NCBI GenBank assembly: GCA_000934665.2
Contig: JYFJ02001673.1
Span: forward strand, 1 to 64,000
DNA from: Catajapyx aquilonaris
Lineage: Eukaryota
DNA: 64,000 bases
Direction: 5' to 3'
Positions within the stretch are counted from its first letter, which is position 1; every line of letters begins with the position of its first letter. Position numbers and translations under genes: made by a program. This document shows, one piece after another, positions 25,001 through 28,000 of this stretch. A model generated the notes under the pieces. That model searched no databases. It saw only the letters and a list, made by a program, of their open reading frames with translations, and had not been told where the DNA came from.

Positions 25001-28000
25001 GATGCCAAAAGAGCCTCGACGACAGACATGTGACCACATTCTGAAGCAAAGTGCAGGGCGGTGGCCCCACAGTGAGCTCGCTCATCCGGCCTAGCACCCA
25101 ATCCCAGTAGGAAGTTGACTACATCCAAATGACCCTTGTAGGATGCAATCATGAGGCAGGTGTTGTTGTACTTGTTGGCCAGGTGGATGGAGGCACGATG
25201 CTCCACTAGGTACTTCACTATGTCTAGACGCCCATCAAAACAAGCAGCTCGCAGGGGTGTGGAGTTGGTGCGAGTAGGATGATTGCAGTCAGCCCCTGCC
25301 TTCACCAAGTGCTTCACGACCCCTAAGTGTCCTGCACCTATAGATAAGAAAGAGAAGTTCTAAGTTTCAGAACTGCAATAACATGCATTCATACCCAAAA
25401 GTTCTACTGTCTTACATATGAAAAATTGTTTGATTTTTAGCTTACAATGTAAATCTACCTACTGCTTGTTTACCTTAGGTTCTACTCTGCTCAGCTTCAT
25501 AAGGCAGCTCATATCCTCACCTTATAAGAATGGGAGTGCCTTACGAAGCCGAGCAGAGTAGACAATGCTGGGGGTCTCTTATTGCAACCGTCAGGTAAAC
25601 TATAAAATCAAGACATTCCACCCTAAGACTGCCTTGTTTGATCAAAATTAGCAGTATTAAACATGTCTAAGCATATGCATGCTGTCAAGTAGTCTGCAAA
25701 AACAAAACTTATATAAGCTGGATTACATATTCATATCAACCTCATAAAAATCCAATCTGATTGGTGCACAGCATGAATATGCGGACTAAAGTAAAACTTA
25801 AATATCACTTTCAACCTGCAGGTGCCTCAATCCTGTCCAGTTACATCATGAGAATAGCATTGATTACATAAGAAATTACACCACAATAATATTGACAGCT
25901 TGACTATGACTTGAAATGTAATCTGAAATCAGTGTGCAAATGCTTCATTCCACAACCAGTACTCCACTCGAAGAGACCCTTGGGAAGTACCAGTATCTAT
26001 GGGCTAACACTAAATTTCAACCGAAGTTTGACCACTGCCTTGGTAATGTCCATACTTTCTGTCATCTTGCCGTGGATTCCTTGTGCATGGGTCACATTGA
26101 TCTAGCTTTCAAACACAAAAGCCTGGAAACTAAATTGTTAGAGAATAGTTTGGAGAGGGTGAATGGAGTAGTGTTACACTAAAAAAAAGTGCACAACAAT
26201 AGATTTCCTCCACTACGTTCTCCCAGGACATAAATCCAGGTGCAAGCAGATAACACTGGTGGTAAATAGTTATTCAGAGATTGCATGCACATTCAAATAA
26301 CATAGTTTCTATTTCCTTCCAGAATCTCACAAACATGACACTCTTTGCCATCCTCTCTCTCATGATGTTACCACATGCATATTCATCGCAACGTTACTGC
26401 AGGCCTCCAGCCCCAATGAAAGACTTTGACTTCTCCAAGGTATGTGGGTCAGTGTTCGCTAATGGGACAGACTTTGTACAGTAGCAAATGCTTTTTATTC
26501 CATGCATTCTCTTGCTATGCATATTAATACTCTGTCATGTCTGTAATGTGTCATGTAATGATGATCTAAAAATTGGTACATTGCACTCACATGTTGTGTT
26601 ATTCCAGATTCATGGCACATGGTACGATATGGAAAACATGGAAGATTCATATCGCACTCAATGCATGCAGGCCACGTTCTTCACTGATATTCACAACAAT
26701 CATATCCTACTAGGATTCTTCAATGACAAATTGTAAGATTCCCTTCAACAAAGTTTCATAGCCCACAGCTTACATCCTGATCTTCTATACTGATATTAAT
26801 CAGATTCAACGACACAGTGCTGTACACTACTAAAATGAAGGAAACACTCCCTGGAGTATATGAAATATTCCCCATGATAATGCGAGGAAGTGGAGCTGGC
26901 GACTGTGAGAATATTAACAAGATAATAATATTGTACACAAATTACACCGATATTTTGATATTCTGGTATTGTAACACAGAGTTACCAAAGGGTAAGTCAC
27001 ATTCCTTATTTCCATTACACTAAAGTCAGCGGTAATCCACACTGGTAAAAATATCATAATTATGCACTATAGGCAAGATATTGCACGTGTATACATTAGA
27101 TAAAATTTATGCTTTAGAGCAGGGGTTCTTAACCTTTTCTATGTCAAGCACCCCTACGAAATGTTTGATTAATGTTCGCATCCCCTGCAAAAGTAACTTC
27201 AGATGAAGAAGTTTAATGTTTACTTTTTGAACCACAAATATCATACATGCAGAGAGAATCTCATGGTGTGGAACCAGTTGAAGTTCATGTATATTTCATC
27301 GTTTGGCTCTCAGGAAGTGCTATGAGTGAGATTTTTGGTTCATAGAAGTTTATTGGGATGGGGAATATACAACATTTCATAAATTGTGAATTACACAAGT
27401 TACAGGGTTACCACCCTCTCAAGGTGTCATTTTCCATTATTGTTTATTCCTTGCCTGAGTGATGATATGTGACGCATCACTCAAGGTCACAAGTTTCTCT
27501 GTGCTGCAGCCCCCGAAACTTCATCTCGTACCACAGGTTAAGAACCCCGGCTTTAGAGTGACTAAGTAATGAGGGCATGATAATTCAGATTTCAATAAAA
27601 TGTTTATACAGTAATATTAAATTTTGGCAAGTTATGTGACTCATGTCAGCTTTCTATTGCATTTTCAGTGAATGTGACAAAGCTTTTTGTGAGAAACCCA
27701 CACGATCACAAGGCTTTCCAACATGCAAAATCTCAGTGGGCTAAAATGGACTTCCATGAGCTCTCCATTAGCTTTACACGCTCTGCTTTATGCCAAAACA
27801 TGCTCTACTATGGAAACTGAGAAGATTCTATGAAGTAATATGCTGAGACTGGAAATGTGATTATTTGACAACTACCCGCCATGCACACAGTTACAGATTC
27901 AACCATGGTCCTGCTGCAGCTTTTCTTCTATACAGGCTGTTTCCTGTAACTCTATGAAGACTTTCAGGGGTAATAGAGGGGACCAAGGCAAGCATATTTC

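Follow-up and report, generated by a model that had tools for sequence, protein, structure and literature searches.

A probable secreted lipocalin gene of ApoD/Lazarillo-type architecture lies antisense within an arthropod FEM1B-like intron

The strictest requirement placed on a lipocalin sequence is a G-x-W triplet near the mature N-terminus (SCR1), according to excerpts of PMC8214410, which also describe pairwise identities down to 10% and large, highly divergent, lineage-specific lipocalin families in insects, crustaceans, and chelicerates. In passages of PMC2254393, S-N-Y is accepted as an equivalent of the T-D-Y motif, and a disulfide joining the C-terminal part of the protein to strand B is described as conserved in arthropod lipocalins. 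Exon–intron structure also serves for assignment to the family (excerpts of PMC2254393 and PMC3695081), and a passage of PMC3184775 gives the intron phases of ApoM/Ptgds-type lipocalin genes as 0,2,1,1,1. The coding sequence of ApoD spans four exons, as stated in an excerpt of PMC8530192, and Table 1 of that source places the cysteines of rat and mallard ApoD at W-18, W+15, Y+9 (counted from the Y of TDY), and R+34.

We analyzed a 64,000-nucleotide stretch of DNA (the window) in which a sequence-only reading had proposed that four + strand exons splice in frame to a protein of 189 amino acids. This gene model could be confirmed (Table 1): the four segments join into a coding sequence of 570 nt, consisting of 189 codons and a TGA stop, and every intron has GT-AG borders. 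The donors of introns 1, 2, and 3 (AAG/gtatgt, ATT/gtaaga, and AGG/gtaagt) resemble the consensus, and the corresponding acceptors read ttccag/A, aatcag/A, and tttcag/T. A further strong acceptor-like site, tttctatttccttccag, ends at position 26322, 12 nt before the ATG, suggesting that an additional 5'UTR exon may lie upstream. GC content at third codon positions (GC3) is 0.484 in the coding sequence, which is nearer to that of the neighboring FEM1B exon (0.523) than to the GC content of the gene's own introns (0.37). When the spliced protein was used as a tblastn query, it matched its own four exons only, and hence no paralogue was found in the window.

The hydrophobic N-terminus and the GTW, TNY, and LFVRNP motifs claimed in the same reading are present in the translated product. 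Residues 2–13 are hydrophobic, with a mean Kyte-Doolittle value of 2.08, and the first 17 or so residues likely act as a signal peptide that is cleaved after S17. The predicted precursor of 189 residues would thereby give a mature protein of about 172 residues. GTW occupies positions 38–40, TNY 122–124, and VRNP 147–150, and there are five cysteines and three N-glycosylation sequons, at N79, N123, and N141.

Table 1. Features of the predicted lipocalin gene, its surroundings, and the host intron (positions in the window)
Feature	Position	Strand	Description
Coding exon 1	26335..26439	+	aa 1-35; start codon, hydrophobic predicted signal peptide, Cys22, segment ending in DFDFSK; ends in phase 0
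Coding exon 2	26608..26732	+	aa 36-77, last codon split; G38-T39-W40 (SCR1), Cys54
Coding exon 3	26804..26991	+	aa 77-140; Cys111, T122-N123-Y124 (SCR2-like), Cys133
Coding exon 4	27669..27820	+	aa 140-189; LFVRNP with R148 (SCR3-like), Cys181, TGA stop
Intron 1	26440..26607	+	168 nt, phase 0, GT-AG, GC 0.369
Intron 2	26733..26803	+	71 nt, phase 2, GT-AG, GC 0.366
Intron 3	26992..27668	+	677 nt, phase 1, GT-AG
Foldback (inverted-repeat) element	27951..28476	.	131 nt past the stop codon; 171-nt arms, 91% complementary
FEM1B coding exon downstream of host intron	24742..25337	-	ankyrin repeats; PDB, arthropod, and tblastn matches
FEM1B coding exon upstream of host intron	30735..30921	-	78-80% identity to arthropod FEM1B
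FEM1B-like host intron	25338..30734	-	5,397 nt; contains the whole lipocalin-like gene

An open frame of this kind can arise without a gene. When the region 26200-27900 was shuffled and at most three GTR..YAG introns were allowed, 8 of 40 shuffles also yielded a spliced coding sequence of at least 570 nt running from ATG to stop. The spliceable frame alone is therefore no better than chance, and the features specific to lipocalins carry the case. To score such features, we used a profile built from 112 bacterial lipocalins (loci L003-L112). The spliced protein reached 17.7 bits (E 9e-8 at Z=1) over residues 7-58, and residues 18-60, which exclude the signal peptide, scored 17.8 bits. None of 20,000 shuffled sequences reached this score, the best attaining 11.6 bits. 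Among the 839 open reading frames of at least 40 aa in the window, the one covering exon 2 (26485-26733) ranked top with 12.8 bits, followed by that of exon 1 with 1.6 bits, and all remaining frames scored 1.3 bits or less. G38-T39-W40, the SCR1 triplet, lies inside the matching segment, 21–23 residues past the predicted cleavage site. T122-N123-Y124 corresponds to the T-D-Y-like triplet of SCR2 in the F-G loop, and R148 to the conserved arginine of SCR3 in strand H.

Four of the five cysteines follow ApoD. Cys22, Cys54, Cys133, and Cys181 stand at W-18, W+14, Y+9, and R+33, respectively, each within one residue of the ApoD offset; when five cysteines were placed at random, 7 of 2,000,000 placements equaled this ApoD-like pattern. 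The intron phases 0,2,1 reproduce the start of the lipocalin pattern, a comparison that covers phases and exon number and is drawn from secondary passages. Chance assembly of four open stretches and GT/AG pairs in intronic DNA would be in keeping with the result of the region shuffles, but it would have to produce as well a profile score absent from the shuffled proteins and unique among the frames of the window, a rarely matched cysteine arrangement, family-like intron phases, and an elevated GC3. We therefore regard the absence of a gene as highly improbable.

The family assignment is less uniform along the protein. Residues 60-189 scored -2.4 bits against the bacterial profile, leaving two thirds of the protein without profile support, and the 17.7 bits, obtained with our own bacterial profile over the N-terminal third only, falls short of the 24 bits that Pfam requires for PF08212. 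Comparison by hhalign gave a P value of 3.6e-4 with a probability of only 37%, and placed TNY opposite the D-x-D-Y of the family with low confidence. BLASTP to E. coli Blc gave 23.1 bits. Scanned one by one, the four exon peptides hit no Pfam family at E values up to 10, and sequence searches of the PDB with exons 4, 3, and 2 returned 0, 7, and 3 matches, respectively, at E values of 1.1–6.3 (DNMT3B and nebulin among them), none of them a lipocalin.

Exon 3 was also searched against larger collections. Among 5.8 billion clusters, no relative was found in the near range, and the longer range gave 7 candidates, none of which was significant. A phmmer search of 1.84 billion representatives returned three matches, to proteins of 2304, 871, and 1198 aa, each in 4–5 short stretches; we took these scattered matches in long proteins as compositional. 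A metagenomic locus (L113) was likewise rejected as a relative of exon 3, the resemblance being a chance match of nine residues inside a long unrelated frame. Separately, viral contigs were scanned with the Blc alignment in order to reach eukaryote-like lipocalins. All 80 loci kept shared 59–60% identity with a Blc query of the E. coli type; they were taken for prophage-borne copies and did not serve to widen the profile.

The ESM Atlas provided a lead for exon 3 alone. The ten best matches that bear a family share the family or clan of the best one, and the rows listed, which score 0.75–0.77, belong to lipocalin families and come mostly from Arthropoda. These scores do not reach the 0.9 mark of the tool, recognition is low (1975), and the matches count as a lead only. 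Exon 4 gave no usable match in the Atlas. The mostly arthropod lead for exon 3 agrees with the arthropod identity of the host gene, whose best matches are only 71–74% identical, indicating that the lineage is poorly sampled in protein collections.

These searches bear on the possibility that the locus encodes a real secreted protein of another fold, in which convergence or coincidence would explain the N-terminal likeness around G-x-W and the spacing of the cysteines. Such a protein would explain why the profile match is confined to residues 7-58, with residues 60-189 unmatched, why single exons recovered no lipocalin from curated HMMs or the PDB, and why the Atlas scores fall in the range of leads. 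It would, however, leave to coincidence the independent agreement of five features, namely the profile match, the cysteine offsets, the SCR2- and SCR3-like motifs spaced almost as in ApoD, the exon number and phases, and the Atlas neighbors; moreover, lipocalins with identities as low as 10% are known (excerpts of PMC8214410). We consider another fold quite improbable. The proposal that the product is a secreted ApoD-type lipocalin is partly supported, in that several independent though indirect lines favor it, namely the profile match of residues 7-58, the cysteines, the four coding exons with their phases, and the Atlas lead.

We then considered whether the copy works. A 447-nt element lies in intron 3, bounded by terminal inverted repeats of 24 nt (27112-27135 and 27535-27558). 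The foldback element downstream of the stop codon has no second copy in the window and probably sits within or behind the 3'UTR. No AATAAA was found after the stop codon of the lipocalin-like gene; the first canonical variant of the poly(A) signal is ATTAAA at 28583, 763 nt beyond the stop and behind the foldback element. Upstream, a search with simple patterns found no TATA-like hexamer in 25901-26335. These observations would suit a lipocalin-derived sequence that no longer works, such as a young duplicate in the FEM1B intron that is silent or decaying and in which mutations have yet to hit the frame or the splice sites. The lack of a canonical poly(A) signal within 760 nt and the foldback inserted so close to the stop fit such a copy, as do its extreme divergence, with no relative of exon 3 found, and the loss of the ApoD pocket tryptophan as judged by eye. 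By contrast, no stop interrupts the 189 codons, the six splice signals are all intact with donors near the consensus, the four structural cysteines and the G-x-W, T-x-Y, and R-N-P motifs are all kept, and GC3 is well above the GC content of the introns. Neutral drift to such divergence would be expected to break the frame. A non-working copy thus appears unlikely, and we favor, with reasonable confidence drawn from sequence features, a real, structurally intact protein-coding lipocalin gene with ApoD/Lazarillo-type architecture.

The favored gene lies on the opposite strand to its host. The minus-strand stretch 24664-25338 matched FEM1B in the PDB with 229.7 bits, compared with 174.3 bits for FEM1C, and the FEM1B exon is 71–74% identical to FEM1B of several arthropods (e.g. 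P0004, P0005, and P0012); by its sequence, the host gene is an arthropod FEM1B-like gene. Borders of the host intron were determined by tblastn with two of these arthropod proteins (P0004 and P0005) and by reading the splice sites directly, which gave the minus-strand donor gcagcag/gtatga and acceptor ctatag/gtgcagg. The exact limits, 25338-30734, bear out the earlier placement of the gene wholly inside this minus-strand intron, and show that the intron encloses the lipocalin-like gene entirely, on the antisense strand, with 998 nt between it and one flanking FEM1B exon and 2,915 nt between it and the other.

The simplest account of this nesting is that it would be a by-product of gene duplication or of insertion into a long intron. 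A location within a FEM1B intron is not reported for ApoD, and a literature search for a lipocalin gene nested in FEM1B gave nothing relevant among the matches listed. Regulatory or redox coupling of the lipocalin with FEM1B is unsupported speculation. Scarcely any credence can be given to the fuller version of this idea, in which a lineage-restricted, fast-evolving ApoD-like carrier would be transcribed antisense to FEM1B, mutually exclusive with it or tuning it, so that a secreted carrier of lipid or redox ligands and a reductive-stress E3 adaptor would form one regulatory unit. Demonstrating a regulatory tie to FEM1B would be of interest, but the present results give no hint of one. Animal genomes commonly contain nested antisense genes. 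As expansions of arthropod lipocalins are common too (excerpts of PMC8214410), the arrangement itself raises no new question.

If the gene is real, the arthropod repertoire gains a further, very divergent lipocalin. The gene also carries a practical warning for annotation: homology searches run one exon at a time missed it, as did the curated HMMs applied to individual exons, and it became recognizable only once spliced, through its cysteine pattern, short motifs, and intron phases. The lipocalin reading itself derives from the N-terminal profile match, the ApoD cysteine pattern, the four exons with phases 0,2,1, and the Atlas lead for exon 3. Based on these features, the protein would enter the secretory pathway and may be N-glycosylated at its three sequons. 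Its fold would be an eight-stranded barrel followed by a C-terminal helix, held by two putative disulfides, one between the N-terminal segment and Cys133 and the other between Cys54 in strand B and the C-terminal Cys181, with Cys111 left free. The role of such a protein might be the extracellular transport of a small hydrophobic ligand.

Among described lipocalins, bacterial Blc (Pfam PF08212, Lipocalin_2) aligns in register from the N-terminal region to past G-x-W-Y. Beyond that region, however, the protein does not match the Blc-type profile. Blc is a lipoprotein that lacks the four ApoD cysteines, whereas the gene described here has introns and a predicted eukaryotic signal peptide.

A second comparison concerns ApoD and the ApoD/Lazarillo type, the 'early-diverging' lipocalins of Metazoa. 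The coding sequences of ApoD and of the predicted protein are divided into four exons, and the mature length of about 172 residues is close to the 166–170 residues given for ApoD in an excerpt of PMC8530192. In a by-eye alignment to rat ApoD, 11 of 33 residues are identical from Cys22 to Cys54, after which C-M-Q-A faces C-I-Q-A, and 10 of 32 are identical between I119 and P150, including T-x-Y, a cysteine, and R-N-P. R148 lies in L-F-V-R-N-P, where rat ApoD has I-L-G-R-N-P, a correspondence made by eye with no profile result behind it. Even in these best-conserved blocks, identity is only about a third, and the middle of the protein cannot be aligned by eye. Spacing differs slightly: 84 residues separate the SCR1 tryptophan from the tyrosine of TNY (79 in rat ApoD), six more residues than in ApoD separate Cys54 from TNY, and R148 follows Cys133 by 15 residues rather than 17. 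The additional Cys111 is probably unpaired. When exon 3 was searched against large collections, no significant relative emerged that would mark the protein by sequence as an orthologue of ApoD, Lazarillo, or NLaz. The conserved pocket residue (Trp127 of human ApoD) is replaced by Lys144, as judged by eye against rat and mallard ApoD; consequently, we do not class the gene among ApoD orthologues and ascribe to it an ApoD-like architecture only.

Finally, Cys54 and Cys181 fit the disulfide that connects the C-terminus to strand B in arthropod lipocalins. With the expanded arthropod groups (crustacyanins, insecticyanin/bilin-binding proteins, and tick and insect lipocalins), the gene has in common its arthropod genome and the Atlas neighbors of exon 3. 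Taken together, these comparisons suggest that it is probably a divergent ApoD/Lazarillo-type lipocalin, an ordinary further member of a large known family.

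We examined the four plus-strand segments that the sequence-only reading had joined into an intact secreted lipocalin gene. The exon coordinates held: GT and AG stand at the borders, and the joined frame runs for 570 nt, comprising 189 codons and a TGA stop. The donors are near consensus (AAG|gtatgt, ATT|gtaaga, AGG|gtaagt), and the three introns lie in phases 0, 2 and 1. GC content at the third codon position was 0.484, compared with 0.523 for the FEM1B exon; for the gene's own introns the value was 0.37. The spliced protein has a hydrophobic N-terminus (residues 2-13, mean hydropathy 2.08), three N-x-S/T sequons, and cysteines at 22, 54, 111, 133 and 181. 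GTW (38-40), TNY (122-124) and VRNP (147-150) are candidate counterparts of the lipocalin conserved regions.

Coding exons of the lipocalin-like gene
Feature	Position	Strand	Description
Coding exon 1	26335-26439	+	GT/AG-bordered segment
Coding exon 2	26608-26732	+	GT/AG-bordered segment
Coding exon 3	26804-26991	+	GT/AG-bordered segment
Coding exon 4	27669-27820	+	GT/AG-bordered segment

When 26200-27900 was shuffled and as many as three introns (each 60-800 nt long, with GTR..YAG borders) were allowed, a spliced ATG-to-stop frame of at least 570 nt appeared in 8 of 40 shuffles. The open frame alone is not beyond chance, and the case must therefore rest on protein-family-specific features.

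The spliced protein was compared with a 112-sequence bacterial lipocalin profile built from E. coli Blc, 80 Blc relatives from species genomes, and 30 Bacteroidota lipocalins collected with Pfam PF08212. The spliced protein scored 17.7 bits (single-sequence E 9e-8), the alignment covering residues 7-58, and residues 18-60, with the signal peptide removed, scored 17.8 bits; the maximum among 20,000 shuffled versions of the protein was 11.6 bits. Among 839 ORFs of at least 40 aa in the window, the highest score, 12.8 bits, went to the ORF containing exon 2, and the second highest, 1.6 bits, to the one containing exon 1. Residues 60-189 did not match the profile (-2.4 bits), and a Pfam scan of the four exon peptides, each taken singly, returned no family at E up to 10. 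hhalign against the lipocalin family gave a probability of only 37% (P 3.6e-4), pairing TNY with D-x-D-Y.

Exons 2, 3 and 4 each found no lipocalin in a PDB sequence search, and exon 3 had no relatives in 5.8 billion protein clusters, whether in the longer or in the near length range. phmmer of exon 3 against 1.84 billion representatives gave three matches, all to long proteins and each consisting of several short stretches. A metagenome scan with exon 3 yielded a single nine-residue match, which was rejected as chance. In the ESM Atlas, exon 4 found nothing. With exon 3 alone, the ten best family-bearing matches shared the family or clan of the top one; the matches listed carry lipocalin families, mostly from Arthropoda, with scores of 0.75-0.77, a range that the tool rates as a lead only.

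The gene had also been described as nested antisense in a FEM1B intron. By tblastn with two arthropod FEM1B proteins and direct reading of splice sites, the host intron spans exactly 25338-30734 on the minus strand, with the small gene wholly inside and antisense to it. By similarity, the host is FEM1B-like: its large exon scored 229.7 bits against solved FEM1B chains versus 174.3 bits against FEM1C, and was 71-74% identical to insect and crustacean FEM1B proteins in a large protein collection, with no identical entry. Since the best relatives reach only this identity, the lineage appears poorly represented in protein collections; the source genome belongs to an arthropod, and its own proteins are absent from the large collection. 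Mammalian FEM1B genes have few exons, whereas the host gene (15859-32344, minus strand) has at least seven coding exons in the window. Near the host donor site, the FEM1B intron contains a perfect inverted repeat of 51 nt (30371-30551), whose 79-nt spacer includes a perfect palindrome of 20 nt (30461-30501). Genes nested antisense in others are commonplace, and the functional coupling with FEM1B that had been speculated finds no indication in the sequence. A literature search for a lipocalin nested with FEM1B gave nothing relevant among the matches listed. Elsewhere in the window, 25 further ORFs of 113-182 aa (1-15000 and 33000-64000) gave no Pfam match with E of 0.01 or below, and the whole window yielded neither an Rfam family nor a tRNA.

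Because a strong acceptor-like site (polypyrimidine tract and CAG, 26306-26322) ends 12 nt upstream of the ATG, the transcript probably carries an untranslated first exon farther upstream, resembling the upstream untranslated exon described for ApoD (apolipoprotein D) genes in PMC8530192. No AATAAA was found downstream of the stop codon. The first ATTAAA is at 28583; between it and the stop lies a foldback element (27951-28476; 526 nt, 171-nt arms, 91% complementary) that starts 131 nt past the stop codon. Intron 3 of the lipocalin-like gene holds a 447-nt MITE-like element (27112-27558) whose terminal inverted repeats are 24 nt long and 88% complementary. Neither element has another copy in the window.

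ApoD has four conserved cysteines forming two disulfides, according to PMC8530192. Counted on the mature rat and mallard sequences printed there, these cysteines lie at W-18, W+15, Y(TDY)+9 and R+34; the corresponding offsets in the present protein are W-18, W+14, Y+9 and R+33. When five cysteines were placed at random 2,000,000 times, only 7 placements agreed as well. PMC2254393 describes a conserved disulfide joining the C-terminal part to strand B in arthropod lipocalins. A chance frame would need several independent coincidences to produce such features, as would a secreted protein of non-lipocalin type. The locus may instead be a silent or decaying lipocalin duplicate, although its frame and splice sites are intact and all structural landmarks are kept, which speaks against long neutral drift of such a copy. 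The family-specific lines are mutually independent and concordant. Most likely, the product of the locus is a secreted lipocalin of ApoD/Lazarillo-type architecture. It would have a signal peptide and two disulfides, leave one cysteine free and carry as many as three glycans, and family membership suggests that the barrel may carry a ligand. The gene is probably a new, very divergent member of the known lipocalin family, of interest chiefly as a case that exon-wise homology searches overlook. PMC8214410 reports divergent lipocalin expansions in arthropods.

Aligned by eye with rat ApoD, Cys22-Cys54 is identical to Cys8-Cys41 at 11 of 33 positions, and I119-P150 to I100-P133 at 10 of 32, gaps of one and two residues being allowed; no such alignment was possible for the middle of the protein. 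In this comparison Lys144 occupies the position of the conserved pocket Trp127 described in PMC8530192. We do not call the protein an ApoD orthologue, because the pocket tryptophan is not retained, sequence orthology is undetectable and curated HMMs were scanned on single exons only. Exon-intron structure is a criterion for lipocalin family assignment in PMC2254393. As in the gene described here, the ApoD coding sequence is spread across four exons (PMC8530192), and the phases 0, 2, 1 compare with the lipocalin pattern 0,2,1,1,1 given in PMC3184775.
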